From: Botryllus schlosseri
Lineage: Eukaryota
NCBI GenBank assembly: GCA_051294905.1
Contig: CM119372.1
Coordinates: 22,136,001 to 22,200,000, forward strand
Reading direction: 5' to 3'
DNA: 64,000 bases
A program made the translations under genes and the position numbers. Each line of letters begins with the position of its first letter. The stretch's first letter is position 1. The notes beneath the pieces were generated by a model. That model ran no database searches, was not told the origin of the DNA, and saw only the letters and a list, made by a program, of their open reading frames with translations. This document shows positions 16,190 to 44,400 of the stretch, in pieces.

Positions 16190-16741
16190 TAGGGCTGGGC
16201 AAAATGATTCGAGTACTCGAATCTGAATCGAGTAGTAATTTTAATGATTCGAGTCGAGTAGTAAAAGACGTTTTTTTCGAGTACTGAAATTATACGGTCC
16301 TCGCAACTGAAAGTCAATTTACTGAGGAGAATTATAGTTTTGATATTATTTTCCACTGAGGAAGCCGTGAAACCATAGCAATTTACAACGTTGTAAATTG
16401 CTATGGTGAAACCTTGATTGGCCGTGTTCCAGCACACCAGGCACAGTTGAAAGCTACGAACGTTACTGGAAATAACACATTTACGAAGTCATTATCATCC
16501 ACCAAAATTGTTAAGAAGTGCAATGAAATTGGTATGGTCGAAAAAATACCAAAGTATCTTTAATGTGATGGATAACAGGCATTACGTTCTTTGTGGTGGC
16601 ATATAAGGTTCATATTTGGACTTCGACATAGTACATCCTGCTGTGACGTCATAATGAGTGATACTCGATTACTCGACTCGACTCGAAGCATAACGTGATT
16701 CAGAACCGAATAACTCAGGTACTCGATTTTGCCAAGCCCTA
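16190..16741. mobile_element. hAT MITE (TAGGGC-TIR, ACTCGA-repeat family)
   Basis: TAGGGCTGGGCAAAAT ... ATTTTGCCAAGCCCTA. Perfect TSD GTTATTTC (16182-16189, 16742-16749). An inverted family member lies at 25070-25597. Confidence 0.93.
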
Positions 16742-17111
16742 GTTATTTCTCATTTAGGGCTAATCATCCATATTTTGCATGCTTTTCTAGTTCTGATTTG
16801 TTTTATTAGTATTTTCATCTATATTAAACACAATATTACGATAACATGCAAAGATAGGAAGGTGATGAAACGACTTGTAGTAGTCTTTCAGTCAGACACC
16901 CACTTGGGCCTAAAACGTTAATAAGAGGCACGCGCAGTTGCGCACATTGCACATTGTATGCAAAGTAACTGAAGATAAAAATAAACAGTATCAGTTTATA
17001 ACAATGATATATGGAGTAATCAATAATCTCATTTCAAAACATCACAAGACTGCGATTCAATGAAAAGGTTTGGAGTAGTGTTTGAAATCAGACACTCACT
17101 TGGGTCTAGGC

Positions 17112-20344: not shown

Positions 20345-23300
20345 TTACGATTTCTCCAAGTGGTGAAGTAAACTAAATAAAGGCTTATTATGGAAACATT
20401 TAACTTCAAATATGCTTTCAACATTTTGTTTTTTGATCCCCAGACAATTCTCCAATACAGATGAATGCACAGGCGTGGAGGTCGATATACGAACAGCTTC
20501 AGCCTGAAAACATAAATCAGATTTGGTAATCTTCACACAACCAGAGGTTGTCTAAATAGTCTTTCTTTTAGAAATAGCTAATTTCAAACCATAATCATAA
20601 TACTTCAAGTACAGCTATATAAAAAATGTCTGAGAAGTACTCAAAAAAGTTATCTAAAGTAGATTGGATTAGGAGCCACATACTTTTGTTGGTCTATCGC
20701 CACTGACAGGTTTTAACATTGCATAATGTGTCCTTGCACTAACTGACAGTAATGCGAAGCTATTGAAATTACTTGACAAAACCTAAACGTGAAAAGTAAG
20801 TAGTTTGGCTTCATAGAAATTGTAGAGTTAGAAGTGGTAGTAGTACAAACCCAACCAAGAACTTCAAAAAAGCTGTATTTTGTTTCTCCCCACCTCTGCA
20901 CAATACCATATCTTACATACTGTGTGCAATGCACAGTTGACCAGAACAGCAGGATATATAAGAGCATGTTATGCAAGGTATCTACCTTACGCAATTAACA
21001 AGAATTCGTGCAGGATGCAATCGACACCATAATATTGTATAACGTGAGAATGGGTTCTTTGGTCAAATGCAGAACGACTTTAATACCATTGCAATAGAGG
21101 AGTGACGTGACACTTAGAGTCACTGGGAGTTCTTCGATATTTATACAATTGGGCAAACGACGCCTCAAAATCTAATCCACTTATCCTGGATTTTATGATT
21201 AGAGCACAGTTCCACCTAATGGTAGGGAGATTGGGTCAGTGATTCGCCTCCATGCAGAGAGACAACTAGGAAACATTGTTATGTCTCATTCAAGTGCCAA
21301 TAGTATGTTATTGCCCACCCTGATTGCAATATAATGATATGACAAGTTTGGATATGATATAGCGTAACAGTAAAATATAAATAGATTTGACCTGTAAATA
21401 TTGTACTGTTTTGAAAGGACGCGATTCCGTGACGCTCAAGTCTGAAGTAGTTCCGATCTTGTGTAAAATCTCCTTGAGATCACCAATATTGAGGTAAGGT
21501 ACGACGCTAGACATCTCCAGCACGCGAAGGTAATCTGTTGAATGAAGCATGAGACTTTTAACGAAATCTATACGTTGATGTTGGCAGTTAGGTGGTAGTC
21601 AATAGACTTCGTCATTACAATCCGAGTCTAACATAAGCCGCATTATAAATTATTTACAGCGATATGTCAATAAATTCAAGAACTACTACCTGGGTATGAT
21701 ACCACTTGGAAACCATTCTTTAAAATTCGGTCATCTTCAATTTCAAAATCCGACAGACCAGAATCTGTACTCGACTTCCTCACAACTTCCAGTCCAGTCA
21801 ATTCCTTGAATGATAGATTTGTAGTATATATGTCAATGGGATCTGGCAGCCGTCTTCTTGAAACTGAGTGACTCTCCATTAGGCTGTAAAACAAGGTTTT
21901 CAATCTCAACTTGAGTCGTGGACTGGACTCAAATCATTCGCTTGCGGGCTGGACCAGTCAAGTCATGCCAAAAGGCTACCTCCAAATCTATACCTTTTTC
22001 AGATAAATTCTTCATTATTAAGTCTAATAGTAAGTGTTCTATTTGAGAGGATGTGAACGTTTTGAGCCAGTAGTTATATCGCAATGTCACCACTACGTTC
22101 GCTTCTGTGAATAACTACCTTTTAGTCTGTACCTTCTGAAAACTCTGAACCCAGTGTGAGCTTCTTTACCTTCTGAGAATTTGCATCTATGTCTCTCGGG
22201 GTAGTTATGTCCTCTTCTCTCGATACAATTTAAGTGTCCTCAGGGGACGCCCAAACGTTCTCTTTTTGCATGTTGTCCTCTTTTTTTTGATTTCAACAGA
22301 CTTTTAGGCGATCAGACAACGAAGACTAAAAAGTGGTCTATCCCACACAAGCTATTGGCTAAAAAAATGGCTGACTCTTGAACTCCAACTTACTTGGTGA
22401 ATATTTTCATCTCTTGAAGACGTAAAATATTGACGAGGTATAGGGCTTTACAAGTACCATCAAACACAACACCCCCTTTAACATCTTTCAACAAACCAAC
22501 CGACGTAAAACACGGATCCTTCTGAAAGGGACAGTTATAAAACATAAATCTGATCCCTACAAATATTGCCACATGCAAAGTACAACCTCAATACCCGCCC
22601 GTTCCATCGAGAAATTTTTTTTCACAGAATCAAAATCAAACTTCAATGTCCTCTCCTGACCGTCGAAATATTTATGAGTAGGAAACGTGTTGTTCGTCCT
22701 CGCCGTATCTTGCGACGATGTATCCATAGGACGGTTTTCTTTGTCAGTTTTCGAAATCCAATTTGCAATTGAGGGGGTCCTATATCCAACAGGCCTCCGG
22801 CAGCTTGAGTCTTTCTGTGTGGATTTAGGAGTCGAACTGCACACGGGTGATGATGATATTCTCCAACTTGCAAGACTTTCATAACCAGATCGACTCTCCC
22901 TTGCAGAGTGCCTCTAAAAAGATCCTATTTTCGAGTAGTAGTCACTAGGAATTGGATTAATTTGCTTACCTTTCGTGAGGGTGTGGATGCATTGTTACCC
23001 CCTGAGGTTTTTGAAATCATGCTATGCCCGTCTCTATTAGATGGCCGCACTGAAGCCAAGACACAACACGTTTAAATTTCAATTCATAAATATCAATTGA
23101 AGTCCTATTACTTGGTAAAGATTCATCAAGAGACTTATTTCTTGCCAAATCCCGTACCAGAATCCCAACAGGTTCAATACACTCTCCATGTGAATCTACT
23201 GCTCTTCCTTTGCTCCACCATGCTGTACCAGGATGACCCACGCCTAAATTAAATGACTTGGCCTATGTATGTACCATATGCATTCAATCATATCCATCTA

Positions 23301-26300
23301 TCTATTTCAAGAAATTCACAAATAAAAACTCTTCTGTTGGCAACGGAGCGATTACGTTGTTCGTATCATCAGTGTTTAATAATGTAATTTTAATCACATA
23401 AACAACTGGGATCATTTCTGAAATACAATCATCCGCTAGAAGCATGGGCAGTGCCTAAAGCAGTGGGCTTGATATCCATGATTAATAGTCTCTATGCCAT
23501 GCAATCAATTGACATATTATCATATATGAAATAAACCATGTGCCAATGTGGTGCTGCTGTGTTTGCTATTGATGTATTGCAACACAAGCTGGTTAAAATA
23601 ATTAGCACATTTGGTAGTGATTATGGATTTCTCGACTGGACTGCCAGTATTCCACAATGAGAAACAATTACAATTCCTTCGACATTAACGTATAGTTAAT
23701 TCAACCACCAAAATATTAGCAAGTTGCAGTTACCTTTCTCAGCCGGATCATTAGTTGCTGACATATTCACCAGGTTTGAAGCCATATCTCTAACACATAC
23801 TCGATTCAATACACCCCTGTCGTTAGGATCTTGATTCTTGGCCCGCCCACAGTCTGTTGCATCATGAACTGAGGACGCGTGCTTCGCAGTGGAGAGGTCT
23901 GAAAGTTTTTTATGTCTCAAGAGATAGCACATATTAAACAACCACAAATTACATTATTGCATTAAACTAAAGAAAGAGAGGTTTGAACGCTTCCAGGCTA
24001 CGCCCCATCGCATTTTTGGCATCTGAATACAGTATCACCCTTCGTGCCTTGTTTATGAGCTGAAAGTGCACAAGAAACGCATTCATTATATTATCTCCCT
24101 ACACATATTCGGCCTCTTCTACCAAGGTGCTGTTGTTCAACGTGCATAATGGGTTGGGCATTCGGTCACCTGTGAAGGCGCGAAACCGAACTGACTAAAA
24201 TATCTTGGTTGAATGGGCCGATGATAGCGAATGGCATTCTCCTGCTATGTACAAAATTAAAATATATTGTTCACACCAAATGACAAGATGTGAGTGGGCC
24301 ATGCTCAAAGTCAGGGGATGAGGATTCAGTCATGGACAAGTTCTTAAGTGACCATTGAAGGTCGACACACCAAAAGTCAATCAACACGAGAAAGGGTGGT
24401 GGAGTCACGGAAATAACCGAACCCTAAGATTCACATCACCACTTCTGTATGGCCGTTTCGACAGAGGTAGTATCTGTTCTGGCATTGAACTTCTGGCTGT
24501 TGCAAGATTCATCTGCAGTAGATAAATGGTTATACCAACATACGAACAAAGATATTCAGCATTGAAAAGATATATTGTAACAGGGCAAAAGTAAGAGTGT
24601 TATACCCCTGACACGCTCGACCATGATTAGTGTCTCAGTATGGTACCTTCCCGGCGATGCCAGTCCTAGTTTTCCTATCGTCACAGCAGACTATGGTAAC
24701 ATTGTTCCAGCTACATATATCACATTGTAACCACTTGAGGTATTATTCTTCCGAACAAATTATTACAGACCGGAAAATATTACTCAAGTTTCCAAAATTT
24801 GGTTATTTTGTTTCAAATTAGTCCAGGGTTTCGCGTCGTAGCTCAATGTAACTTCAGGTATGTTAGGAGACATAAGTACCGCATGCGCACTCAAAATATC
24901 AAGGGGATTTCTCCACCCTTAGCGGTGAGGGCGATTGTTACATTTGCCCCCAGTTACATTTGTCCCAGGTCTCCCCTACAATTTGAAAATGCTCTGTGGC
25001 CCACCTCAAAATTTGGTACGCTGATCACCAAATAAATGGTCAGCACATTGGCCCAGACTTACTCACGGCTAGGGCCAGGCAAAATCGAGTACCTGAGTGA
25101 TTCGATTCTTTATCACACATTACACTTCGAGTCGAGTCGAGTATTCGAGTATCACTCATTATGATGTCACAACAGAATGTAGGCTACTATGTCAAAACCT
25201 CAAATATGTACCTTTTATGCCACCACAAAGAACATGATGCCCGTTGTCCACCACATTAAAGATACTTTGGTATTTTTTCGACCATACCGATTGCATTGCA
25301 CTTTCTGACAATGTTGACGGGTGATCATGAGATTCACGACTTCGGAAATGTTATTTCCAGTAACGTTCGTAGCTTTGCACTATGTCTCGTATGCTGTGAC
25401 ACGGTCAATCAAGGTTTCAAAGCTTTCTCAGTGGAAAATAGTATCAAAACTATAATTCTTGTTGGTAAATTAACTTTCAGCTGCGAGGAGCGTACAATTT
25501 CAGTAGTCGAAAAAATGGTCTTTTACTACTCGACTCGAATTAATGAAATTGATACTCGATTTAGATTCGAGCACTCAAATCACTGCGCCGAGCCCTACTC
25601 ACGGCCTATGTTAGAATCTGATCAAGTTCAACATCTTCGCGATCCCCAGAAAGGGGCAAACGATCCCAAGATTGAGAACCACAATCTTTGACTAATGTAT
25701 TAAAACGGCCTTACCGACACTAGGAATATTCGGTTTCTTAAAATTGCGATAACAATTATTCTAATCAGAGTAATTGCTAGTTATTCCCAGATATTTTGTA
25801 TTGTAGATTTTTTGAGGACAGGGCACCCATATTAAAATCAACATATGTGACACTAAAAAAAATTTCAAGTAGCATAAATCTTCCCCACAATAAGATATTG
25901 TTTTTGTTGATTCCCGAAAAAAATGTCAACTCCATTCAAGCCTTCAAAATCCAGGACATTTAAGCATATCTCCGCATTTCCTCCCGGATGCAGTTTAAAC
26001 AGGGAAATTCCAGACTTATGGCAACCCTAGTGTAGCCAAGGGGGCAAAAATTGTACTTTGCCACCCAAACTTTTCATTACACCCTGCCACACTAATTTGT
26101 TTAGAGATAATGATGGTGTAGCTGCTTGAGAGTGCCTTCAAGCATTGCGCTTCCAAATGGATGAATTATTCCAAGAATAAAACAAAAATATTTGTCACGC
26201 ACTGCCTTCGGCTTCTTTCTTTTTATCGACTTGTTCTTGAATACTGGCGTAAGCCTCTTTCAACATAACATCGATGGCTTCATGCAGTGAGGCTTTATCA

Positions 26301-29300
26301 TCGATGAACACCGTGGATTTATCAGACTCCACATTAACATCAACATTTTGAGTTGGTATCTGTAACAATAATCAACATAACAACATACAAATATCACTAT
26401 CATATAAGTAGGTGAATACCTCAGCCTTTAATATTGCCAATGGCCAATTGGCAGAGCTATTGGCAGCTTGTGGATCACATGTATGCTGTTTTATCAGATT
26501 TTCGATTTCCTTGTCTCGAACAGGTCTCTTATTCACAAATAAGAAGAGTTTATCGGCAGATTTTCGGAAGTGTCTTGTATCTGATTCAAGAGAGACAATC
26601 ATCATGAAAGATAATTTTAATATATGGCAACCCATTTATAGGAAGATGGAGCATTGCCAATGGCAAAAGTAGAATGCATGATGCATGTTTGCGACTAACA
26701 CAAAATGAATCACGACACTTTAAACTGGTGCGATTAGCGAAAATGTGTAGTTACCATCATACAGGGGCCATTTCACTCATAATCATGATGGAAACATATC
26801 CCCCAAAACTGCTTTCTACAATACAAAATAAAAAGTGTAAAAGGAAGTAGCTTTGTCTTAAAAGCTGTTAAGTAGAAATATCAAAACCTACTTGATTGCT
26901 CCGAAAAAATATATATAGTACTTTATTACTGACCAGTTGACGAAATCTGGTTATGCAGCGCACACACCCTGCGCAAGGAGAGTTCAAAGATAAAATATTA
27001 CCTGTTGTTGTTGGAATGATTGCCGAGACACTAATACCGGAACTGGGGCGATGATGATGCACTTCTATCATCTGCGACGCGATTTGAGGTCCAACGATAT
27101 TCTGTAAAGCCGTCTGCCAATTTTTGCAAGATGGTTTCTGCCACACTACTGACTGAAAGCAACACAATTTGTTTCAAAATGTTCTACAAATCAGTTGGAA
27201 AAATTTAGGCGCAGAAATGCGTAGTTCAATTGTATGACTAATGCTACAATACCACAAGCAAGAGTGCTTGAAAAATATTCACTTGCCTTATTGTGAAGGA
27301 AAGTGAATTTCTTCTCCGGATGAATAAGCCCGAATGCGGTCAGGATATCTTCAGTATTTTTCAGTATGAGCTTCTTCTTGGACTCGGTTTGATAGTACTG
27401 CAATCGTACAGGCATCTTGTGAAATATTTTGCTTGCAACTACGGTAGTTCCCTGAAAACAGAAGTATATTCTTGAGTTTTTCACGGCATGCCAATTTCGC
27501 TATCAAATAATCAACATCTATTTTATATCAGTATTGCTGTAAGCAAGTATTCCGTTATAAAGTAGGCTGCAAGGATTGCTGTAACAACCAACTTAGTAAA
27601 TGTTGCGCCACAGTGAAAATTGAATGATCGTCATGCAACCATTCAAAATTTGAAGAAAAAATTATCATGTTGATTGTTGGCATGAAGTGTTCATTCTGAA
27701 ATACCCTTCTTCGCATCATCTGTTATATAATTTTCCATAACCAGAATGAAAAAATGTCAGAACATAGGCAAGCATAGAATATTTCAATATGTACTACTCA
27801 TTCCATCATAAGATATAATCCACCCTGTAGTTAAATACTAAAATATGGATTAAAAGCAGTGTATTGAGTCAGCAACTCATTTAGAGAGGTACAAACCCTC
27901 CTGATGACGACAAGCACCCACTCTATCAGTACTAATCAGAGGTGGTCATTTAGGAAATACATTCATATTTAGGGTGTGCTCGAATAGGCTTTGTCTACAT
28001 GCACTACATATTTGGGTGGTATTCACGGAAGCCTACTACTTTACATAGTAGGTCAGTAACTGAGTACTTCTATTTTTCAAAGTACTCAAGTAGGGGTGGC
28101 ACTTACTCAATTGCTCATGCTTGCACAATGCATCCACTTCTACTTACCTTTAACGGTTTGACGTTTGTAAAGCAGAAAGTAGTTAGAATCTGGAACGGTT
28201 GGTATCACTCTTGAGAGTGAAATTTAATATCAACAAGGGGAAATAGCATCAGCATCAGTATCATGGTGATGGAATATATTTATGAAAATTGCGTTATTTG
28301 CGGTGTCATCAGTCCTTTAGTGTGGTGTATTGTACAATCCCAGAAGTAGCCCTCCTCCGATTTACTACTGAACTATGTGACACCTCAACCAATCTACTTT
28401 TTAAAATGACTTGCTAGAGTACTTTTTTACCTTTCATTTGCTACTTCTACTTGGAGAAATGTGTTGGATATTGTTACTTTTACTTGTAATTGACTATTAG
28501 ATCAAGACATTACTTCTCCTTGAGTAGGAAGGCTGATTACTACGGCCACTTCTATTACTCCCAGCAGATTTTAGACCCAAGCTGCTTACGCTTTTTGTTT
28601 TTGTCAAGTGCAGAGCATAGTGTTTGGATAGATTTTCATCAGTTACACCTGTGATATTCTCACAACAACCGGGCGATGCAATCCCTTTTAGAGCGTTGTC
28701 GGGATGACTCGATGCAACTGTTTTGCATGACTTGACTTGGTCGCTTTGCAAATATGACTTGACTCGGCGTTTCAGAAATGTGGATAACTCGGAGCAAAAT
28801 TTATGAGTCAGTTTCAAGTCAAGTAAACGGTATCGACTAACTTGTTGCATCTTGTATAATGTATATGTTCAGATTATTCGCGATACGCTGGTGTGACTCG
28901 TGAGAGGAACCAGTCATTCAATGATTGGTTAAACAGTTCCACAGGGTAGTAGTAAAACTTGAGCACATTACATTTTTATTTAATCGAAAACTTCTTCCTC
29001 TTTTCGTAATGATTATACAGGTTGGAATTGATGCAAAATTGGTGTGCAGCGTTTTTAGGCAACCTAAAAATTATATCAAATAGCTAGCAAAATTTGAAAA
29101 CATTAGTTATTTTTGAACAGCCCTATTGAGCAATTTCATACCTTGTGTTCTCTAAAAATAGTTTAGGCTTTCCTTAGAAAATTGTTACTTTTAAGTGTAA
29201 TAACAAGCAAAGATTGAGGGAATAACTTAGAGTTGCAATAAGTTACCTGGGCTAAATGTGAGGGTTTCACAGCGGTTATAATTCCCTTGTCGTTAAACGA

Positions 29301-30405
29301 GTACTTGCTACTAAAATGGTCCGTCTCTGTCCTTGTAGTGATAAATACCTTCAAAATAGTTGCTATGATTGGGAGGTTAACAATATAAAAGGAATCAACA
29401 TTACATCAGCAACGTGACAGAGCGAGCTCAGTGCCTCTCCACGAAAACCATAAGTCGAAAGCGTCGCTAGATCTGTCGTTGACGTTATTTTCGAAGTGTA
29501 ATGACGCTGAGCTGCAAATTCGACACCATCCTGCTTGATACCTTTCACAGCACATAACACAAAAGCATAGATGAAGGCCAAGGCGTACTACTGTTGCTCA
29601 ACAGCATACCCGTGCCATTATCGCGCACTTCAATTCTCGTCAGGCCGTAATTCTCAAACTTCACCTCAATGCAAGTTGCGCCCGCATCCAGCGCGTTTTC
29701 AACCAGCTCTTTCACAACACTTTCAACTTTGGTGATTACCTGAAATCAATTTTGAACTCTTCATGGGATCAAGTCGGGTTGGTTTACTACTAATGCCAGA
29801 AAAATAGCTTGAAATTACGACCTATGGCATCACTGAATGCAACACAGTCTTCAACCAAGATGTGGTCAGAAAAAGCATACCGTCAATTTACTAGTTAATG
29901 GTACAGGTTGCCTTCTCTCACGCTGCCAATCGACTATTTAACTCTACTAATACTTGACTGACCAATTGTTGTGCTATAGAAAGTGGTAAATTCATGGACT
30001 ATCACATTTACAGTACCACTATATCAATCACAATCATAAATCCAATTTTTGCAGCTTCAACATCTCACAAAAAGTTGCTTTTCCCAGCTCTCAATTACAT
30101 CTCAGATAACTACTTTTCTACTTCACTGAATTAATTTGGGTATGCTTACAAGAACTACATTTACACAAGTAGAACCAGTGTCTCAATGATCATCATTATT
30201 TCGTTAAGCAATATTTCAACAACTAGAATAATGCAACAAAGCCACATTCTGGTCATAGCAACGCAGATCAGTAATACATAAGAATTTTTAAATTTTGGAT
30301 TTCATTTTTTTTCCCTGTTACCTCTCGAAACCATTGTACTAAATAGAACCTCACTTGTAAACTTGAAAGCAGCTGGGCCGTGTCCTTTGACAGCTTATTC
30401 ATCAT
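20345..30405 (-). CDS. PMS1: MutL-family mismatch repair protein PMS1, about 17 coding exons
   Basis: N-terminus [46 protein letters not shown], then [13 protein letters not shown] and [12 protein letters not shown]1-specific [12 protein letters not shown] and C-terminal AEAVRIS..CFHNKP. Exons include 30405-30355, 29739-29610, 29541-29405, 29348-29247, 27451-27287, 27152-27002, 26580-26420, 26359-~26200 ... 22522-22393, 21884-~21690, 21534-21392 and 20502-20345. Middle exons are approximate. Confidence 0.9.
25070..25597. mobile_element. hAT MITE (same family as 16190-16741, opposite orientation) in a PMS1 intron
   Basis: TAGGGC...GCCCTA termini. Perfect TSD CTCACGGC (25062-25069, 25598-25605). 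Confidence 0.93.
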
Positions 30406-30977
30406 CAAGCACAGTACTTTAATACTAATGTATATATTTCAACACCCAGAGGGATATGCATAAATTGTGTCTGTACCTGAAACAGAAAACATTTGAATGA
30501 AACCATGATACTTTGAGGTACCAATACTGAGCAAAAAACTTAATTCTTGTGAAAAGTGATTGAGTGAGATAATCTCGAATTTGCCGATGATCGAACCTTG
30601 ATCTCAAAGATCTTCTCAAAGTTGAAATGAATGTAGTACCACTGTACCAGTACTTCAAACTTTGCACCACACTGTGCTAATAATATAATGTTGTCCATTA
30701 CACAAAGAATCGGGGGGTTAGAAATGACATTTCATTTTGAAATTAACAGTAAAATTATTACTCAACTCTCAATTTAAACTTTGTATTTAACTAATCATTT
30801 CTGGCAAGCCAATAATATCATTGGATAGTTGGTATTTATGGGGTGTTTGACACTCTCTCTAGCCAAATCTCAACACGATCAGGCCAACCTTCAATACCAT
30901 GCGTTCATCAATTCAATTGCTTCTAACAGCGGATTAGCAAGGGGATACCATAGAAATTTCCTACAGCCCCAGCACAA

Positions 30978-31397
30978 TTATAAATCTTTTGGCAAAGATT
31001 GGAGCAACCTCTGTTTTATCGAGGGCAAAACAGCCAGATGCTCATCGGCACATTTTAACAGACAAGAATCGAAGTTTTGTTTCGCCCTCTCTTCTCCGAC
31101 GGCCGACAAGCTGTCCTGCGCCGCGTCCTGGCAAGTCATAATACATCTTTGTATTCGGTTTTGGAATCTCTCTAGTTCTTGTTTCACGTTACTCTGCAGT
31201 TCCATCAGCGGCCTCTGACACGACTGAATGCATCTTTGAACATCTTCAGCGGTTGAAATTGAGTCTTCACAACACTTTGCTCCACACAGGTAAGATTTTC
31301 TTTGCAAACTACGTACATGTTTTTTCTCCAGTTCCCTCTGCATGTCATTGGCAGCAGTATCAATCTCTGCCATTTTCTGCTTGACATGTTCGCCCAT
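30978..31397 (-). CDS. FAM136A: FAM136A (DUF842) mitochondrial intermembrane-space protein, single coding exon
   Basis: 139-aa ORF with VRSLQRKSYLCGAKCCED, VQRCIQSC, ELERFQNRIQRCIMTCQD and CLLKCADEH (CX3C pattern). Confidence 0.93.
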   Translation of the reverse strand: MGEHVKQKMAEIDTAANDMQRELEKKHVRSLQRKSYLCGAKCCEDSISTAEDVQRCIQSCQRPLMELQSNVKQELERFQNRIQRCIMTCQDAAQDSLSAVGEERAKQNFDSCLLKCADEHLAVLPSIKQRLLQSLPKDL

Positions 31398-32327
31398 TTC
31401 AAATGCAATTAGTTAAAACCACCAATTTATCAGGAGAAACACTGTAAACATAAAGTGAGCACCATGATTGATCTAAAAATTCGTTTCAATCCAAATTTGA
31501 TCACTTAGACAGTTCATACCGTATATTTGACTGAAGTTACTACAGCATGTTGTAGTACACCAACTTGAGAAGCAAGTATCCCATGGTCCATCCCAACAGT
31601 AGGCAATCTGGGCATACACATTACACATTGACCAGAGTATAAGGATTTAAAATCCTTAATTTGGATTCTCACAACCACTCTCAATATGAAATAGAGACAA
31701 TGCTTGCTCTAATGCTCATCCTGAAGCTAGTTCCTAGAAGTCATAAAGCACTACTGTGGTCACTGCTACTGATCAACTAATCAACAATATCTTATCTTCA
31801 GGTAGGCCAAGTATACGAGATGCTTTTTGCCAATGACTTGACAAATACATGGAAATAAAATGCACCCGTACTGTGACAGAAACCAAAACAATCGCAAAAC
31901 CCATATGCACTCGCACCCAAATAATCTTCACATTCTTGTTGCTAATCAACCAGAAGTTTTTACCGAAAGCAAACAGTGATACTTATTACACCAACATTCT
32001 GGGTGTCGTATTGTCTAGTGATCAGATGTGATATTTCAAATTTTCGTTGCATTTGTTGAGTAAAATATGAAACACATAGGACAAATGATACGAGGCAAGG
32101 GGGCAGGGCTCCAGCATTGTCCAGCGACTTATTTTTAAGCAAATGTGTAGCCCAGAAATTGCAATTACAGTTATAGTTGATTTGTTACAACATGTAGCAT
32201 GTCTCAAAATTTGGTGTGCTAGGATGTGTCGAGTCCATCACACTACTTTTCTCTAATCTTGCTCCGAGCTTGAGTATCCCCTTTTATTCAAGCTTGTCAG
32301 AAAGTCGAGTTTCATACCACAAGCTTC

Positions 32328-33032
32328 TCATGATGTCACACCAGATGCACAGTTGTTTTCATATTCCGTTTTATCCATCAATCCCTCAATGGTTTGGGCT
32401 CTCTCATCTAGTTTGATCATCACGACGGCAATATACCCATCCGTGTCATGTTTCTCCTTCAATAATGCCGGGTTCTCTACAAGCTTCTCATTAACCTCCA
32501 CCAGATTCCCTCGAATTCCTGACCGAACAGTATAAGCAGCATCATCATTGGTCGTAACAATACACAAGGGACTTTCCGGATTCAACCATTGTGCGCCTCT
32601 TTTCCTTTTACCAGAGACAACATTTCTGGAACGATCGCACTTATCGGTCACTCTGAAACTGACACTTTTGATACCAGACTTGCTCGTCAGCGACGGGTGG
32701 CTAGGAGCTAGGGTAATAATGCATAGTTTGTTTGAATGCATCAAGACCCTTACATGGTTCTGTTCCGAAAATGGCAAGGTCGCAAATCCCAAGGCAGGTA
32801 TATTCATGCTATAGTATTGAGAAAAATATCTTTCCACGACTGATGGATAGAATTTGCATTCCTTCTGAAAATCCCCAACCTGGAGGGTGCCAATTTGCTC
32901 TGTGTGCATCATGTCTGTTGCGTTATGCATTTCTGAGGAGTCATTTTTTATATCACTGTTTTCTTCAGGAGAGTCATACGAGGTATTTTTTTCTTCACCC
33001 AAGCGTGTTCCTACTTCTGCCAGGGATTCCAT
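32328..33032 (-). CDS. ABITRAM: Abitram/Simiate (FAM206A; glycine-cleavage-H-like fold), single coding exon
   Basis: YPSVVERYF, HSNKLCIITLAPSHP, DRSRNVVSGKRKRGAQWL, IRGNLVEVNE, GYIAVV. Confidence 0.92.
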   Translation of the reverse strand: MESLAEVGTRLGEEKNTSYDSPEENSDIKNDSSEMHNATDMMHTEQIGTLQVGDFQKECKFYPSVVERYFSQYYSMNIPALGFATLPFSEQNHVRVLMHSNKLCIITLAPSHPSLTSKSGIKSVSFRVTDKCDRSRNVVSGKRKRGAQWLNPESPLCIVTTNDDAAYTVRSGIRGNLVEVNEKLVENPALLKEKHDTDGYIAVVMIKLDERAQTIEGLMDKTEYENNCASGVTS

Positions 33033-33203
33033 GCCGCGTTATTGCTAAGTACTTCTAATTTGAATGACCTTTTTCCATTAATTGACTGATGATATTTGCC
33101 TCCAACCGCTAGATATTGACCAAGAGTAGATTATATCAATATCCTGGATAGACGCAACAATAAAGTTTATACCAAGTAAACGATTATCCACACAGGCAAT
33201 ATT

Positions 33204-33446
33204 CTATTGCTCCTCTTTATAGCCTAAAGATTCCAAAGGTTCCTTGACCATCAAGTTGTTATCCATGCGACATGACAAATAATTCTTTGCCTCGATCCGA
33301 CAGGCGCTGCTGTCGAACTTATTGGCCTTGAGACAGTTCATAAATGCATCCTTGAATTCGACACATTCACCCAAGTGATCCAGAGGGAATGCACCTTTGG
33401 CCGGAGGCACAGGCTTGAAGGTTTTTTGAAATGGACCGGCTGACAT
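33204..33446 (-). CDS. COX19: Cytochrome c oxidase assembly factor COX19 (twin CX9C), single coding exon
   Basis: PPAKGAFPLDHLGEC..FMNCL..CRIEAKNYLSCRMDNNLM..LGY. Confidence 0.95.
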   Translation of the reverse strand: MSAGPFQKTFKPVPPAKGAFPLDHLGECVEFKDAFMNCLKANKFDSSACRIEAKNYLSCRMDNNLMVKEPLESLGYKEEQ

Positions 33447-34013
33447 ACTTTAATCGAATTGAACAGCCACGAATTTAGTGAATATAGTCCACTCTATGCC
33501 ACCTCTTTTATTCTATCATCTGAAATATTATTAACATCTATGTTCATGCAAGCAAACAAAGTTCGCAATGAGCACGAAGGACTATAGATTTATATGACGT
33601 CGATCGCAAAATACCTCCCGTTTTTTTGCAAGACAAAAGAGAAATCAAGCGAAATATGTTAAATAGTCAACGATTATAGCTTAAACATACCCCATAACTT
33701 TACATGAGATAGGCAAAATCTAGTGGCAACTGGCAACATTGATTGTTTCTTATTAACTAGAATCATTTTGAGCATAATTTCAGCAATTTACAGTTTTTTG
33801 ATTCCATGCCTAAAGTAAAGTAACTGATGATCAAGAGTGGAATTGGTGGTCATGTCACCCGCAACTTTCCATTCAATTACCTATTTATCCTACGCAAGAA
33901 ACATTTTTGTCATGCGCAACGTTAGCGACCTAGCAACCAAACCACTGTTACGAGTCTGGCTGATGACTAGACAAGACAGTCACAGACTCACAGTTCCACT
34001 CATGACGTAACTA

Positions 34014-34374
34014 TATGCTTACCATATTTTGGAAATCTAAAAAGAGGACACTTTTTCAGAAATTTGCAACTTGCAAAACCGGAGTAGAATTCTCAAAATC
34101 CGGTGAATTTTTCCCACTTTGCGATATGTTGACTAAAAAAAAAAAGGTCATCTTTTCGCTCAGAGCTAAAATCACCGTTTTTCACTACGAAATACCCGCC
34201 GGAGCGTCACTTCTGTGCTAATATGCGGCATATCACTCGCAATTTGCTCTAAATCTGACCTAAATTTTCAAAAAAGAGGACAAAATCTTAAAAAAGAAGA
34301 CAAAAGGGCGTCCTCCGAGGACACTTTCAAAAAAGAGGACAAATCCTCTTAAAAGAGGACGTATGGTAAGCCTA
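34014..34374. mobile_element. hAT MITE (Blackjack-like), 361 bp
   Basis: TIR TA(T/G)GCTTACCATA. Perfect TSD CGTAACTA (34006-34013, 34375-34382). AAAAGAGGAC subterminal repeats. Confidence 0.92.
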
Positions 34375-35135
34375 CGTAACTATCAAAGGATGAAATGTTT
34401 TTGTAGTTTCTCAGTGACATATCCCCTTTCACCGACCGCCTGAACGCTATAAAACTATAGTACGCGTGCCCCTAAGGGACTCCCCCCTCCATGGACCCTA
34501 AACCAATCGTTCTCTATTCCACTTCCGCAAAACCCTTCCATGACTTGCCAACTGATTTTGTCGCTTGTCATTTTATATTATCTTCTTCTACTTTCATTCT
34601 GCGTGCATGCCTCCTATTTACATCGCCTACGTGGCACGCCCAGGTGCATGTGTGTCTGACTTGAACCACAACGTACAAAGTTATAACTATGGTATACCGT
34701 AACGGTGCGGCGACCCGGCGACATATGCCTATAACAATATTTTCAAGTACCGGTCAGACTTTATATGCGAAAATTCCAGCAGCGTATTGATCTGAAGTAG
34801 TAACGAAACAACTGCCACCACCGACACACAATAATATGACACTCTATCGCTACATGAAGGGCATGTAAGCAACGTGCTGCTGTTGCGCTAGTCGTGTGGG
34901 GTCAGCTGTACTGCTGTAGTAAATATGAAGGTTGCACTGCAAATCATCCGTGAAGTTTTGCCAAATGCCGATATCAAAAACCAGTTAGGGGCAAAGCATT
35001 GCTAGCGCCACAGATATATTAGTAATCATAATCACTAATCATTAATTAACGTATCAAAAGAGATTTTGCGGTTTCCTTGGAAAAATAGTACGAAATTGTC
35101 ATTCACAAACCAATCCATATTCCAGTTTGCCGGTC

Positions 35136-35207
35136 GACTCCGTGGCGCAACGGTAGCGCGTCTGACTCCAGATCAGAAGGTTGCGTGTTCAAATCACGTC
35201 GGGGTCA
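35136..35207 (+). tRNA. tRNA-Trp (anticodon CCA), intronless
   Basis: GACTCCG..TGGCGCAACGGTAGCGCG TCTGA CTCCAGA TCAGA..GTTCAAATC..CGGGGTCA forms a full cloverleaf. A and B boxes present. T5 Pol III terminator at ~35220-35224. Confidence 0.97.
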
Positions 35208-35462: not shown

Positions 35463-36129
35463 GTTTATCAGTTTGTCGCTCAGTGCGGTATCTCCGGCGG
35501 ATAAGATAAAAGAACGGAAATTGTATGAAATAGTGCTCCTCATGATCGAATACGATGGTTCACATTAATGCAGAAATAGTTTCGCCGGAATGGAATCGTG
35601 ATCACCGAGATTATATATGCTTGCCTCGCTCGCAACAATATTTCGAGTTGATTAAATCTGGTTATAAAATGATTCTGATTTTTCTTGCGTGACAGGACGC
35701 GGCCCATCGTATTCACTGTGTTGGATGTGTTCTGTTCTGCCGCAACGGCGCAACGTTCGGAATGGAGTCTCCCAGACTGGAATTAGTGGTTGTTTTCGGC
35801 AATAAGTTGCGCGCGACAGAAGGGTTTCTTCCATAGAATAATTAAGGAATTAAATGGAAAGTTGCGCGTGACGTTTGCCACCAATTCCACTCTAAAGTCC
35901 TATAATGCAAATTGCAAGTCAAACCGATTCCATCGTATACTTATCAAGCAATATAAGCTCAAGGCTGGTGACAATATTGATATTTATGTTGTCTGCTCAT
36001 TTCAACAGAAATCGATTTATAGCATTTGTATATATAGTCATTCATTCATGCCATATGAATTTACTTTTTTTGGTGTCCTGTATAAGCCAGGGGCTCCCAA
36101 CCCGCCAACCGGTGGTACCTAACCATATA

Positions 36130-37687
36130 GGGTAACCCTAAAAGGAGGGACCGCGGAAACTGCGGAAAACGCGGAACTCGCGGAAACGGCCCCTAAAACG
36201 CGGAAACTGCGGAAAATGCGGGAAACCTCGATTCCTAAAGCGCTGAAACAAGAGGAAAACGCGGAACGCGGAACAGTCGGTCATTGACCTCTATAGATCA
36301 CAAAGTAGCCACTAAAACGAGGAAACAGAGGAAAAGGCGGAACGCGGGACAGTCGGTCATTGACATTTGTGGATCTCATAGAGGAGCTCTGAAGTCTAAA
36401 ACGACGAAACTGCGGGACACCAATGTTAGAGTGAGGCGAAGTAGAACTCATAAATGGCAGAGAACTGTTGATGGCGCTTCTTCGTTTTACAATACAAAAA
36501 TTTATAAACGTCAAAATAAATTGTTTTTTCCTTGGGAGAGACGGATTAGGGTTGGCGGAGGGGGTATATTAGGGTTACGTGAGGGGGATATTAGGGTTAG
36601 GAGAGGGGAGATATTAGGGTTGGGGGAGAGGGGGATGTTAGGGTTAGGAGGGTTAGGGTTAGGTTAGGATTAGGGTTAGGTTAGGGTTATGATTAGGGTT
36701 AGGGGAGGTGGGATATTAGGGTTAGGGGAGGTGGAATATTAGGGTTAGGGGAGGTGGGATATTAGGGTTAGGATTAGGATTAGGGGAGGTGAGATATTAG
36801 GGTTAGGGGAGGTGGGATATTAGGGTTAGGTTAGGGTTAGGGGAGGTGGGATATCATGTCCCTAACCCTCTTCTCCAACCCTAATATCACCTCTCTCCCC
36901 AACCCTAACATCCCCCTCTCTCCAACCCTAATATTCACGTCCCCTAACCCTAATATCCCACCTCCCCTAACCCTAACCTAACCCTAATCATAACCCTAAC
37001 CTAACCCCTAACCCTAATATCCCACCTCCCCCAACCCTAATATCCCACCTCCCCCAACCCTAATATCCCACCTCCCCTAACCCTAATATCCCACCTCCCC
37101 TAACCCTAACCTAACCCTAATCATAACCCTAACCTAACCCTAACCCCTAACCCTAATATCCCACCTCCCCTAACCCTAATATCCCACCTCCCCAACCCTA
37201 ATATCCCACCTCCCCAAACCCTAATATCCCACCTCCCCCCAGCCCTAATATCCCACCTCCCCCAGCCCTAATATCCCACCTCCCCAACCCTAATATCCCA
37301 CCTCCCCTAACCCTAATATCCCACCTCCCCCAACCCTAATATCCCACCTCCCCCAACCCTAATATCCCACCTCCCCCAACCCTAATATCCCACCTCCCCT
37401 AACCCTAATATCCCACCTCCCCCAGCCCTAATATCCCACCTCCCCAACCCTAATATCCCACCTCGATGATCGACTGTCCCGCGTTCCGCTGTTTCCTCGT
37501 TTTAGTGCCTACTGTGTGATATATAAAGGTCAATGACCGACTGTTCCGCGTTCCGCGTTTTCCTCTTATTTCAGCGCTTTAGGAATCGAGGTTTCCCGCT
37601 TTTTCCGCAGTTTCCGCGTTTTAGGGGCCGTTTCCGCGAGTTCCGCGTTTTCCGCAGTTTCCGCGGTCCCTCCTTTTAGGGTTACCC
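36130..37687. mobile_element. Foldback (Mutator-like) non-autonomous element with telomere-like internal minisatellite arms
   Basis: Near-perfect ~220-bp outer TIRs (GGGTAACCCTAAAAGGAGGGACCGCGGAAAC...). 10-bp TSD TAACCATATA (36120-36129, 37688-37697). G-rich TTAGGG-containing array at ~36545-36853 mirrored by a C-rich array at ~36860-37463. Confidence 0.92.
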
Positions 37688-38477
37688 TAACCATATACCA
37701 CTAGTGGTACACAGCGTTTTTTTTCTGGTGCCAGGTGGTACCCGAGTATCTTCGGTTTCTTTTGATTAACGAAACCTGGATGTAGATGTAGGTGTAGCCC
37801 AGAATTGGTGGAAACGTCACGCAGAACTTTCTGTTTAATTACTTGATTATTCTATGCAGAAGAGCTCTCATATCACAGGATTTATTTCAAAAAAATGAAC
37901 CGAGATTCCATGGGGGGCTGTAGCTTCATATTTTGTTGATCTTTTTTGTTTACAAGAAGTACGTTAGTAAGTAAGTATAATCTTTTAGCTCAAAAAACTT
38001 CTGGCTCAGTGTCGTCTTTTCGTATATTTGCATGAGGCATGCTGTTCCACAACCACTGATTTTCCCTTCCACGTTAGAACGTGTGATTTTCAGACTTCAA
38101 CATACATCAAATAATAAACATTAAAACTTACTAGATGAACATGGAAGCTGGAAATGCGATATAACCAAAATCTTATTCAATTTATTTGTGGTGATTTCGT
38201 GTTATTTGAATAAGCCAGTAAAACATCAAGTTCCCAAATATTAGCTGTACAGAATATTCAAGTGGTAAGAGTTTGATTGGGATCCGTGCTAAAATAATCC
38301 CACACTACAAGTCCGTGCCCATTCACAGGAGTAACTGAGGCTTCTGGTATTGAATGTCACAGCTTAAAACTTATGAAATATTCTTTCAAGTCAAGTTATT
38401 TTTCTCTCACTTTCAATTTTGTTTGCAGATATATACTGATATGATATAATGCAACTCATCAAGACCTATTTACTATA

Positions 38478-41400
38478 ATGGCAGACGGTAGCCCCGAAAA
38501 AGCTAGTGACGATGAGTTACTGAGCGGACAGTTTGTTTTGCACACTCTCATTACGGAGTTCATTGCTCAGGTAGATAAAAAAGTGGATCACCTTCTCAAC
38601 AATCAGCTAAAAAATTCCCAATCCCTGACAAAGGATAATCTCGCGAAGTCACTGCAGCGGGGCGAGGACCCTCAATTTGACCAACTGCTGTGTTCTCTGG
38701 GATGTGTGGCGGAATATTGCCTTCCGTGTCTTTTAGAGACTTTACTCGGCTGGTACAATCATCAAATACCAGATAAGAAAACTGGCCATGCCGAATCTGT
38801 CAATGAAAAAGTACAAAAATTGGAGTGGAAGGGGAAGAATGATTCTAAACAAGTCACGGATTATGTTAAAGATCGATATCGCGAGTTTGCTGTTGAGTTC
38901 GTCTTCTGTTTGGTGCTCATCGAAATTTTGAAACAAATACCGGTCCACCCGCTTCCAGACAGTCAGATTCGAAGCATTTTGTCGAAAGCTTTCAACAGCT
39001 TCCATGCGTCTGCTCACCCAAAAGACAGCGATGTCGAAATAAGTATTATAGCTGATCTGTACGCCGAAATGATTGGCGTACTCGCACAAACAAAATTTCT
39101 GGCGGTACACCACAAGTTCATGTACGAACTACTGAAAAAAGACACGCCTGCGAACACTCTCATTTCCCTCATTATGGGCATGAAGTATTTCCGCGTGAAG
39201 ATGTTTCCGGTTGAAGATTTCGAAGCGTCGTTCAGGTTTATGCAGGAACTGGCGAATTTCAGTTTGGAGAGCAAATATCGCGATGTGAAAAACGCTCTGG
39301 CTGGTATGTTTGTTGAAGTGTTAATTCCTGTCTCAGCTGCCGTGAAAACGGAAGTGAACGTTCCTGTCTTGCGTGATTTTGTCGATTCCTTGTATCCCAC
39401 GAGTTTAGAGTTGTCGAAGCGAGCTAAGAACAAGCCTGTGATTTTCCCTCTCGTCACCTGTCTGTTGTGCGTGTCGCAGAAAACTTTTTTCTTGAACAAC
39501 TGGCACATATTCTTGGATATTTGCCTGTCGACTTTGAAGAAAAGCGACTCCAGGCTTTCGAGGGTAGCGTTGGAGTCTCTGTACCGTCTGTTGTGGGTGT
39601 ACATGGTCCGTATCAAATGCGAGAGCAACACGACGACCCAAGCAAGATTGCAGTCGATTGTGAAAAACTTATTTCCCACTGGCTCCAGAAACGTTGTCCC
39701 CAAGGATATGCCCATCAACATATTCGTGAAGATCGTACAGTTTATTGCGCTGGAGCGTCTCGATTTCGCGATGAGAGAAATCATATCTGACTTGCTTGCA
39801 ACGACCGGTTCATCCTCAAGAGCCGCTAAACCCGTTACGTTATATCCAGAAAGAATGAACATAGGTTTGAGGGCGTTTTTGGTGATCACAGACAGCCTAC
39901 AGCAAAAAGACGGTGCACCGCCTATGCCGTCTACGATGAACGTCATGCCGTCCGGGAATACAATCAGAGTAAAGAAAACATTCTTGAATAAAACTCTGAC
40001 AGAGGACGACGCCCGTTCTATCGGCGTGCTGCATTATTTGCGACAAGTGCAAAGAGCGCTGGCCGGTATTTTGTTATCGCTGGACAGCCAAGTGGGTATG
40101 AAACTCCTGCAGACAAACACTCAATTTCACAACAAAGACCCACACGACTTCATCACCAGCGAGCAGAAGCCTAAAATCGAGTTATTTCGGACTTGCGTTG
40201 CAGCGTTGCCGCGATTGATGCCTCATGGCATTCCGCATGGAGACCTGCTGGATATCGTATGTCGTCTTACGATTCACGTAGATGATGATTTGCGCAGTCG
40301 CGCCATCGCTGCACTGCAAGCATTTATTATCGACTTCCCAGTGCTGAGCGAGGAAGTCGTGGCTTCGTTTGTTTCGTTCGTTCAAAGCCAGGTGTCCGAT
40401 ATCCACCAAGAACTGCTGAACAATTCGTTGAAAATAGCGTCCTCGCTCGTAAGCACTTGGAGAACTAGTATCGTCGGTGCCGAATCGAACAAAAGCCCTA
40501 AGAAACAATTGAAAAAATCGGAAGAAAAGACACAATCTCCATCCCCCATCTCACCAACTCAGTCGCGCTGCACGTACGCTTCTGTAATCAACAGGCTTGA
40601 GGGTTTCGCGATCGTATATCTATGCAGCTCGAGGAATCTTACCAGAAAACTTGCGTGCCACCTTCTCAAAGAAGTGAGAAGTCTTGCGGGCGTTTTGGAG
40701 TACGGAAAACCGGAAGAGCCTCTTTGTTTAGACATGTTGGATCAATTGTGCCCGGAAGTGTCTGCCGAGGTTTTGAAGGAAGAAAAATACTTCAAGCGCA
40801 TGGAGACTCACGATGTCGAAGCTATTTTGGCGACTGGGTGCGAAAGAGAATTTTCTAGTCTGGTTGAACTGTCGAGCAATTGGTTGGAGAGCGAAGGCGT
40901 CCATCCTTGGATCTACTTCATGGTCCGTTTCATTGACGTGTCGCGGCTGCAAAGGACTTGCTCCAGAGCTCTTCTTTACTCCTGGCCCGACGCTTACATC
41001 AGGGCGTCTCAAATTCAGAAGTACATCGAACCGTTCATGACTTCGGGTAGCAAAAAAGTCACGTCGGCCCCACTGGTGAGCGGAGATCAAATCTTGATAT
41101 TATGGACCCATTACTTGATATTGCTTTGCCGGTCTGCACTTTCGAACACGTCGGTGAAGCAAAGGCGTAATGAAGAAGCAGCTGTGCCCGCAGGCACTCC
41201 CGATTGGAAAGTGAAGTTGATTCGAGATGGGAAGATATTGGACGCGGTGCCTTCCAATTTATTTCAGAAAATGATAGGGATAGTTAGATCGGACTTGTTT
41301 CCGCCAGCCTACAAAGAGAGCGTTGTGTTGGGCCTTGGCTTTACGAGCACAGCCGCATTTTACGACCTTCTCTGCGAGCTGCAGCACGTCATCCATGAAG

Positions 41401-44400
41401 GTGGCGAGAGCAAAAAACAAGAGAATGTACGCAGAAGGCGGAAGCGCGAAAACATTCGTATATTTCTGATAAAGTTGTTCTCCAATTTGGCGATTCACGA
41501 GGCGCTCAGCAAAGGCATCTACAAGCAAGTGGACAAGCTTCCGGATAGCAAGAAAATTCCGAAAGAGGTGATCCAAGAGTACGTGAGCGACACACAGATG
41601 ATTCTAGACTCGTTGGATCGATCTGAATCAGCCTTGGTCACGAGTTTTTCTTCACAGCAATACAGTTCGTCATCGCCTTTTGGTCAGATAGCGTTAGCCC
41701 TGAACTCGGCCGGAATTAAGGAAGAAATGAAGCTGAATTTCGCCGACATCGTGATCAATCTTGTGAAATACTACCGCGTCTCGTCCCGGCCGAATCTGCT
41801 GACTCAAGACACGAAGAGACGTCTTTTTCACATGTTCAGCTCGTGGTACGACAAATACCTGAAAGACAAGGAGAGGTATTCGAACAATTCGTACTTGGAC
41901 TGCGCCAAAAAAATGCTGAGCGCCCGGTGCTCGGTGATGTGCTGCGGACCCATCTTCGAGGAGGCGGCATTGGCCAAAAACGGATACCTGTACGACTATC
42001 TCGAGTTTCTGCTCAATTCCGGCGATATATTTATGCGACAGCTGGGACAAGAGAGCATAGTCATGTTGCTACACTTTAATCCGAATTTGTCGCAGTACCT
42101 GTCGTGGATTTTTGAAAAGTGTTACACATCGTCAGATATGGTCGCGAGAGCCTGTTTCTTGGGCTTGGCATCGGCCTACTCGAACTCAAACTTCAACGGT
42201 AGCGTGACTACGATTCTCACGCTTTCTCTCTTCTATACGACAGATACAGACGCAGAAGTGTCGCAAACAGCCGAACTTCTGTTGAACTCTATTCTTTCTA
42301 AGGACTTCATAAAGCCTGTGGAGGAACGGATTGGCGCTCCAACCAGCGGCACTTCCTTTCAGAACAACGGAATATCTCGGAAATCATCCATCATCAAGTC
42401 TTCGACGTCTAGCTATTCACACTCCTGTCTGAAAGTGACGGAAGACCTTGCCCGTTCTCATCAGGAGCTGACACATTGTATTTTGTCCGAGATATTTATG
42501 AGATTGCCACGGGCAGACGATACGAAAAAACGCAGACTTTTGAAAGTGATCCATCCGTGGTTGCAGAATGTTGAGCTTATCCCCGTTGGCGATTACAATT
42601 CGGAATATTCTGACAGCGAAAACTGTTGCGATCACAGGCACCAGTGTCTACCGGGGAAAGGCTGGGGAACAAACGCTGCGAGTCTTCACGTTCTCAGTAA
42701 CGTTATGTATCTGACGACACATTATCACCGTTACTTGGAGGAGGAAATCCAAACTTGCTGGTCTGTGCTGTGTGGCACGTGGCACGCAAACTTGTTTGCT
42801 TGCTTGCAATATTTGACGGCGTTGTACTCTGTCGAGTCGCGAGACCTGCTCAGAAACGCGATCAGGCAGGCAGTTACTTACATCAGTAAAGCGAACGGGG
42901 CACGGGTGCTTTCCACACTGATAGAGCAGTGCTTGCGATCAGAGCCAGTGGATGTAACGGTTGAGCCGTGTGTCAATGAGCCGTGTTACAAAGTTGTGGC
43001 ACGGAATCCCAAATTTGACGGTGACTCGCCTGCTAAAAAATCGTGCGAGTCCAGCTCGAACACGGAAATATTTTCTGATGATACCAGCGAGTGCTCTGCC
43101 GAAAACAAATCCCAGCACTCGAATTCCGGTGCCGAACAGGCCAACACCGAAAACAAAGACTCTTTCAAATCATCTGTAGCTCTGCGGCGTGTCGTCGCTC
43201 GGAGCAGTCGTCCTAATTTCAGACTATCTCTTCAAATCCCGGGCAGCGACAAGTCTGGATCCATGAACCAATCGTTGGGAATGATGTCGAAACGTTCCCC
43301 GATGTTATCGTCTTCGATGATGTCATTGACGAAAACTTCGTCAGATCAAGGCATGTCTGGCGAAGAATCAGGTCTGCTGCGCTTCAATACAATATCTCCC
43401 GGCCGTCCTGGTGAGACGGATCAAAGATTCTCGGGATTCGAAGCTCTTACTAACAAAATTCCCTCGAAATTCGCGTCTCCAAAAGACAGACGATCAAGTT
43501 CGCCTCTTCGAAAATCGGAAAACAACAGCGACCTGTCTCGGTCGAATGCTTCGACCAAAGATAGCAGCATGCTCAATGCGACAATTGACGGCAGCTACGA
43601 AATTTCCGAGTTATTAGCGTGGCTTGAACATCACTGTACCGACAAGTCACCCAAACCGTTACCTTTACCATTATCTTCCTTCCATCTGCCATTGCACAAA
43701 TTAATCGTATGCGATCCGGTCGACGGGCTAATGTACTCCAACATATCGTGCATATTCCTGTCGCAGCTGATTATCAATCGTAGTTTGGATATCAACTGGA
43801 ACATTCATCTGCCCCTCGTCTCACTGGCTTTGATTCTCAACATGGACGACACCGATGTGCTAAACGTGCCGTTCTATTGTAAAAAAATGCTGGCACACAT
43901 CATCCTGATACTGGCGAGGGATAAGATTCCCAAGGATTTGATCAGACCGATACTGTCCTATTCGCTGGAATCATGCGATACTATTTTGGGCTCGTCTCGG
44001 GACACTATACCTTGTGGCGGTGAGATTGTTGTGTATAAGCTTTCTGAGAAAAGTATGCTCGAATCGTCTTTGAGCTCTGACGGATTTGTTGAGGATGCGG
44101 TGAAGAGGTTATTGACTGAATTGGTACTCGACGGTACAAGAATGTGGAACTTTGAAGACGTGGGTCCTAAAGTGATCGTCCTGAAAAGTACCGAACGACT
44201 CGCTCGATTCGTAACCCTGTTAGCGGACATCGTCGAAAGATGCAGCCCACGTATCAAGTTCAAACAGCGACTGGCCAGCGAGGCCGCGAAGCTAACAGTA
44301 TCAACGCCGCACAAGCATCACGCATGTCGTGCCTTGCAAGTCTTTCGCGCCTTGGAGCTACCACTCGCGACATCTGTGTTCAGTAAACTTATCCGCTGTT

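Follow-up and report, generated by a model that had tools for sequence, protein, structure and literature searches.

Four genes of the ascidian Botryllus schlosseri, COX19, ABITRAM, FAM136A and PMS1, lie head-to-tail in that order on the minus strand of a 64,000-nucleotide stretch of contig CM119372.1 (assembly GCA_051294905.1, positions 22,136,001 to 22,200,000; hereafter the window), and probably constitute an operon of the type known from Ciona, in which no intercistronic DNA separates one cistron from the next. Stop-to-start gaps along the chain are 171, 930 and 572 bp. COX19 is trans-spliced to a spliced leader (SL), three separate mRNAs exist, and the 930- and 572-bp gaps are mostly 3′ untranslated region (UTR), because peaks of 3′ reads and a poly(A) site sit at the acceptor of the following gene. 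An earlier, sequence-only reading of the window had proposed a trans-spliced operon here, and its four genes, three gaps, four acceptor AG dinucleotides and TATAAA signal all proved to be where it had placed them.

Leader, 3′ ends and coding sequences along the chain

Reads were mapped from 4 of 24 listed runs, over positions 29200–34000. X22 (448 mapped reads) and X24 (40 reads) are bulk raw-read runs of a single study, X20 (437 mapped reads) is a single-cell run with a 3′-biased profile, and X1 is a set of six contigs whose RNA nature is our guess. The raw runs were sampled to approximately 3–6% each, and results on loose read ends refer to the 15 listed of 44. Between 30400 and 33300 many substitutions and small indels separate the reads from the window, most thickly in the 3′ UTRs, which fits a highly polymorphic species; allelic differences clip reads near 31450–31610.

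The COX19-like coding sequence (CDS; 33204..33446, minus strand, ATG at 33446 and stop at 33204) is a single exon of 80 aa with twin CX9C motifs, at residues 28 and 49, and a CHCH domain match (E 2.7e-6). Its two homologues, at 76–83% identity, carry no gene name and no named match was returned; the name COX19, given for the twin CX9C, is shared with the sequence-only reading and is provisional. Behind position 33521, 12 reads from two runs of one study continue into non-genomic letters (eight in X22; four, noisier, in X24). Reversed and joined to the acceptor AG at 33520..33521 (minus strand), the X22 consensus contains an exact match to the full ‘Chordata 1’ SL consensus, as found in part of Bitar 2013 (PMC3795323). 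The leader is missing from the 64-kb window, with which its longest common piece is 11 nt. Because the consensus plus AG reproduces the published leader, and the window lacks it, COX19 is SL trans-spliced at 33521, the very acceptor that had been proposed from sequence. An oligo that we take to be the template-switch oligo adjoins the leader directly in the X22 consensus, and the 24-nt form joined here is presumably the leader of Halocynthia and Botryllus. Rfam and ARAGORN searches of the window found no SL RNA gene, their sole match being a tRNA-Trp gene. An X1 contig at 33503–33656 (depth 2.4) spans the acceptor and may represent the COX19 outron (33522..33656, minus strand, with a start at or above 33656), although this signal is weak and could be DNA.

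The 3′ ends are clearest at the FAM136A/PMS1 boundary (AG at 30477..30478, minus strand). Five X20 reads carry a poly(T) loose end (median 29 nt) before 30477, so that poly(A) is joined at the G in the AG of the PMS1 acceptor. This position had been named beforehand; a site falling at random in the gap would hit it with a chance of 1 in 572, and some AG or other with a chance of 33 in 572. Priming by oligo(dT) within the transcript was considered for 30477 and rejected: the nearest run of at least six A is at 30312, and A occupies 8 of the next 20 bases. FAM136A itself (30978..31397, minus strand) is a single exon of 139 aa with four CX3C motifs, a DUF842 match (E 3.1e-38) and 61% identity to a Styela clava FAM136A-like protein. 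Its 3′ UTR (30478..30977, minus strand), of about 500 nt, or 501 if the mRNAs abut, has continuous X22 depth and an X20 3′ peak of 76.6 at 30488–30648.

ABITRAM (Simiate; 32328..33032, minus strand) is likewise a single exon, of 234 aa, with a GCV_H match (E 3.1e-7) and 60% identity to Styela clava ‘Abitram-like’. Its 3′ UTR (31443..32327, minus strand; about 885 nt, or 886 if abutting) occupies most of the 930-bp gap, again with continuous X22 depth. An X20 3′ peak of 35.8–40.3 lies at 31454–31775, and 21 X20 reads extend through an allelic difference to approximately 31452, 10 bases from the candidate ABITRAM/FAM136A boundary AG (31442..31443, minus strand). There X22 depth falls to 1.9 in 31454–31614, and X1 contig 1 spans the boundary. 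At the candidate COX19/ABITRAM boundary AG (33144..33145, minus strand), X20 depth runs from 11.7 at 33225–33385 through 3.55 at 33064–33224 to 0 at 32903–33063. The COX19 3′ end thus falls within 33064–33224, with an accuracy of one 160-nt bin; X22 depth dips to 3.8, and an X1 contig (32287–33524) spans the boundary. At neither of these two boundaries is an SL or poly(A) end among the 15 listed of 44.

The three X20 3′ peaks are separate, each just above the acceptor of the next gene. The sequence-only reading had supposed that upstream 3′ ends abut the downstream acceptor, which holds to the base at FAM136A/PMS1, while the other two 3′ ends lie beside the next acceptor. If the downstream 5′ ends are taken from the acceptors, the ends of neighbouring mRNAs are less than 100 nt apart: the upstream 3′ end is placed exactly at 30477 for FAM136A, at or below about 31452 (acceptor 31443–42) for ABITRAM, and to bin accuracy for COX19. 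X1 contigs tile 33524–30353 across all three boundaries before continuing into spliced PMS1 exons 1–5, with depth 0 in PMS1 intron 1. Abutting mRNAs would have no more than the AG in common, so 31-letter words spanning a boundary would require molecules that cross it.

No AATAAA or ATTAAA lies within 40 nt of any of the three boundaries. The TATAAA variant occurs at one, in the COX19 3′ UTR (33166..33171, minus strand), 20 nt above the ABITRAM acceptor, and is a candidate signal. When all AG of each upstream stretch were ranked with a matrix built from 11 PMS1 cis acceptors, the COX19 acceptor ranked 1 of 31 (in 600 nt above the gene), that of FAM136A 1 of 51 in the ABITRAM–FAM136A gap and that of PMS1 1 of 33 in the FAM136A–PMS1 gap. 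By self-BLAST of the window, no within-window repeat falls between the four CDSs, the nearest to the chain being at 33834–33924, upstream of COX19, and repeats also occur inside PMS1 introns (25069–25597, 28051 and 28737).

Three of the four genes have a single-exon CDS; PMS1 (20345..30405, minus strand, ATG at 30405 and stop at 20345) is a multi-exon member of the MutL family. Our gene model comprises exons 1–8, an open chain of 351 aa whose identity to six homologues from animals is 41–46%, and the final four exons, an open chain at 25–38% identity; it leaves out the middle (26204–22521), where several GT-AG chains fit without homology. X1 joints bear out introns 1–3, while exon 4 continues into exon 5. 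Frame and homology place an apparent GC donor at 27286 (minus strand) in intron 5. HATPase_c and DNA_mis_repair domains were matched, and both chains match animal homologues with PMS1 names, for the most part ‘PMS1-like’; the nearest named homologue, a Phallusia protein, bears the label ‘PMS2-like’ yet lacks the DQHA..E nuclease motif. That motif is absent from the last-four-exon chain and from six of the seven compared homologues, and is present in the plant protein. By sequence, then, the gene belongs to the PMS1 subfamily of MutL, which lacks the endonuclease motif.

Upstream ATGs occur in three of the four predicted 5′ UTRs: at 33519 (minus strand), a 3-codon open reading frame (ORF) directly after the leader of COX19; at 33078 (minus strand), a 7-codon ORF in that of ABITRAM; and at 30461 (minus strand), an 18-codon ORF whose stop overlaps the PMS1 ATG. 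They could damp translation.

Operon, internal promoter or independent genes

Under the operon model, a single Pol II transcript would run from a putative promoter above 33521 through COX19, ABITRAM, FAM136A and PMS1. The 24-nt leader would take the place of the outron at 33521–20, a step that the reads display directly, and the AG opening each downstream cistron would also supply the final two bases of the mRNA upstream, a coincidence resolved to the base at FAM136A/PMS1, to approximately 10 nt at ABITRAM/FAM136A and to one 160-nt bin at COX19/ABITRAM. SL attack at the three internal AG would cap the downstream mRNAs, and the same attack would probably free the upstream 3′ end, which would then be polyadenylated without AAUAAA, following the model in part of Satou 2006 (PMC1488885). 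The mRNAs would afterwards accumulate independently, with PMS1 the least abundant in X22, the only bulk run informative on this point. The grouping probably reflects promoter sharing among housekeeping genes and not a functional module.

Several observations weigh against this model. A leader on the first gene alone does not demonstrate an operon, and both runs that carry it come from the same study; nor does an X1 contig across genes demonstrate a single transcript. At 33144, 31442 and 30477 no leader is seen among the 15 loose ends listed of 44, in raw runs of which 3–6% was read and with PMS1 nearly uncovered. X22 covers ABITRAM and FAM136A (about 10–26) more deeply than COX19 (6–8), yet leader ends are listed only at COX19; this may reflect loose ends beyond the 15 listed of 44, or better end recovery from a short COX19 cDNA. 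Of the mapping of leaders and poly(A) sites that the sequence-only reading had called for, the SL at COX19 and the poly(A) at the PMS1 acceptor came out as foreseen, and leaders at the other three acceptors did not appear among the 15 ends listed of 44. The poly(A) at 30477 comes from five reads of a single run. The ABITRAM acceptor ranks just 4 of 9 in its gap by the same matrix and is thus the least certain of the four, and a minor X20 signal (3.3) at 32420–32741 may be a second, minor ABITRAM 3′ end near the AATAAA at 32288. PMS1 exons 2–4 have depth 0 in X22, against about 6–26 over the other three CDSs; depth there is also 0 in X24, with 40 reads in all, and in the 3′-biased X20, so that only X22 is informative. 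The last finding leaves without support the co-expression of the four genes that had been supposed from the sequence, at any rate at equal levels, and members of Ciona operons also accumulate independently.

The remaining difficulty is a leaderless 5′ end at about 31638 (minus strand), 195 nt above the FAM136A acceptor, where the loose end behind 31605 in six X22 reads consists of allelic sequence to approximately 31638 followed by the template-switch oligo, with no leader. It is either a reverse-transcription stop or an internal start site. In the latter case the locus could be a hybrid, with one or two true abutting pairs (FAM136A/PMS1 at the least) and an internal promoter, for example near 31638, from which FAM136A–PMS1 would also, or only, be transcribed alone behind an outron of about 195 nt. 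We give this a minor share of the probability, well below that of the operon. X1 contig 1 starts at 31721, in keeping with such a promoter, but at the break it has 30 letters in common with the next contig, like an ordinary graph fork. An extra terminal G is a weak sign of a cap; the 31638 consensus has three terminal G where the X22 SL end has four, a weak distinction given that the noisy X24 SL consensus also has three. The six reads may all copy one truncated cDNA, and ABITRAM 3′ ends extend past the proposed start to approximately 31452. The outron length itself would be unremarkable, Ciona outrons peaking at about 100 bp with many below 500 bp according to part of PMC4691747.

A second arrangement would have four closely packed genes with their own promoters, each trans-spliced or not, and would explain crossing RNA as outron or as read-through, an explanation already advanced for the fuhc pair of Botryllus. 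The absence of downstream leaders among the 15 ends listed of 44 and the widely differing mRNA levels agree with it, and a precedent that also tells against our preferred model is provided by Nydam 2013 (PMC3691228): there, transcripts are linked over a 227-bp gap, the second gene carries no SL, and read-through is the preferred interpretation. The sequence-only reading had objected that the COX19–ABITRAM gap leaves no room for a promoter, which is a weak argument as a trans-spliced gene can start within its upstream neighbour. An objection to this arrangement is the poly(A) site, which coincides exactly with the G of the top-ranking acceptor in a 572-nt gap without a canonical signal; separate cleavage would have no reason to choose that bond, an argument made in PMC1488885. 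COX19 and ABITRAM 3′ ends likewise adjoin the next acceptor, and we consider independent genes improbable. That the AGs are instead ordinary cis acceptors of 5′ UTR introns, spliced to upstream non-coding exons, is scarcely credible. GT donor-like hexamers do occur in the gaps, but the gaps are covered as exonic UTR, and the sequence joined at 33521 is a non-genomic leader, which refutes the idea for COX19. The three joints listed across the four runs are all PMS1 introns 1–3, and none pairs any of the four acceptors with a cis donor, an outcome that the sequence-only reading had named as speaking against its proposal.

Known operons and conservation in other ascidians

The operon model draws its closest parallel from Ciona intestinalis. 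According to Satou 2006 (PMC1488885), 41 of 55 upstream cDNAs carry their poly(A) at the G of the acceptor AG, AAT(T)AAA within 40 nt is missing from 16 of 18 operons, and the mRNAs of operon members accumulate independently; Satou 2008 (PMC2760879) counts 1,310 candidate operons, of which 36 contain four genes, places about one fifth of genes in operons, and finds single-exon genes enriched there (38% versus 15%). The Botryllus chain resembles these in its poly(A) on the downstream acceptor G (at one of three boundaries), its lack of AATAAA within 40 nt, its single-exon genes at the 5′ end, and its unrelated genes with unequal levels. It differs in belonging to another ascidian lineage, its closest named homologues being from Styela clava, in a 24-nt leader compared to the 16 nt given for Ciona in PMC7986045, and in that the leader was seen, among the ends listed, on its first gene. 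C. elegans SL1-type operons, as parts of PMC1488885 present them, are similar in having at most a small stretch between cistrons and a general leader that resolves them, although the three characterised have AATAAA upstream whereas these three boundaries have none. Operons of Oikopleura dioica, another tunicate with a single SL, also lack AATAAA in upstream cistrons, but have 23–30 nt of intercistronic DNA where the base-mapped boundary here has none (same source, in part). The fuhc sec/tm pair of Botryllus schlosseri shares close same-strand genes and linked transcripts in an ascidian; it is unlike the present chain in its 227-bp gap and in a second gene without SL, and parts of PMC3691228 interpret it as probable read-through.

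Homologues appear, on indirect sequence evidence, to share contigs in other ascidians. Those of ABITRAM and COX19 occur on contigs of the same size (1841 and 1418 nt), as do those of ABITRAM and FAM136A (4106 nt), making three exact size ties among 63 pairs (9 by 7) against 0.02 expected; the Styela contig, another of 1.4 Mb and entries with no length given were kept out of this count. On the 1418-nt contig the ABITRAM and COX19 CDSs are at most 224 nt apart. The three tied ABITRAM homologues sit in three different parts of the ABITRAM tree, in which the window protein is at an open fork. In Styela clava, the contigs that carry ABITRAM and FAM136A have the same length, 25,587,678 bases, and the two accessions are 16 apart (XP_039267728 and XP_039267744); no Styela COX19 or PMS1 appeared among the named matches. 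A literature search, mostly of sources other than subscription journals, found neither this gene set described nor any account of operons for Botryllus, Styela, Halocynthia or the stolidobranchs. The gene names were absent from the searched supplements of PMC2760879 and PMC1488885, a search that did not extend to files 2 and 3 of the former and file 2 of the latter, and the parts seen of PMC4632506 and PMC11067885 held nothing on this lineage.

COX19 and FAM136A are not adjacent in the chain, ABITRAM lying between them. COX19 is a substrate of MIA40. FAM136A is another in human cells, with two twin-CX3C motifs, according to part of PMC12557607. It is conceivable, though doubtful when all parts are taken jointly, that ascidians inherited the layout lacking intercistronic DNA from their common ancestor and it is not a peculiarity of Ciona, with at least COX19–ABITRAM–FAM136A kept in several non-Ciona lineages; that upstream 3′ ends are made by trans-splicing itself; that each transcript's choice between neighbouring cistrons keeps the last gene, PMS1, low; and that selection might favour having both MIA40 substrates in a single unit.

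Given that about one fifth of Ciona genes are in operons, by the figure in part of PMC2760879, one more such operon is expected biology. The added value lies in read evidence at base level for the Ciona type of boundary in an ascidian with a 24-nt leader. Three successive boundaries between short, intronless genes would also provide a compact test bed for whether trans-splicing makes the upstream 3′ end, a question left open in the relevant part of Satou 2006 (PMC1488885). For annotation, it matters that assemblies fuse these genes, as the X1 contigs do.

Other features of the window

Downstream of the chain, a multi-exon Sec1-family gene (14634 to approximately 6460, minus strand; weak Pfam Sec1 match), which we take to be VPS45-like, begins 5.7 kb below the PMS1 stop, beyond several repeat copies, and was not counted in the operon. 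The repeat at 25069–25597 in a PMS1 intron forms a MITE-like pair with 16190–16742 below the gene (83–85% identity). Upstream, a short MITE-like element with inverted ends (34010–34375) lies about 500 bp above the COX19 acceptor, and the tRNA-Trp(CCA) gene (35136–35207, plus strand) is 1.6 kb above this first acceptor. Between the COX19 and FRY starts there is a fold-back element (36128–37689) whose inverted arms of 206 nt are 97% complementary and enclose 23-nt repeats, set head-to-head, in which the telomere-like TTAGGG occurs. An intronless Furry ORF (FRY/MOR2-PAG1; 38478–48293, plus strand), about 3,270 codons long, is divergent from the four-gene chain, and an AG resembling an acceptor lies near 38428. 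As FRY in vertebrates is split into dozens of exons, the Botryllus ORF suggests either wholesale intron loss or a retrocopy. Towards the far end of the window, a single-exon Sec20-family ORF (60536–61339, minus strand; Pfam E 2.1e-25) is presumably BNIP1-like.

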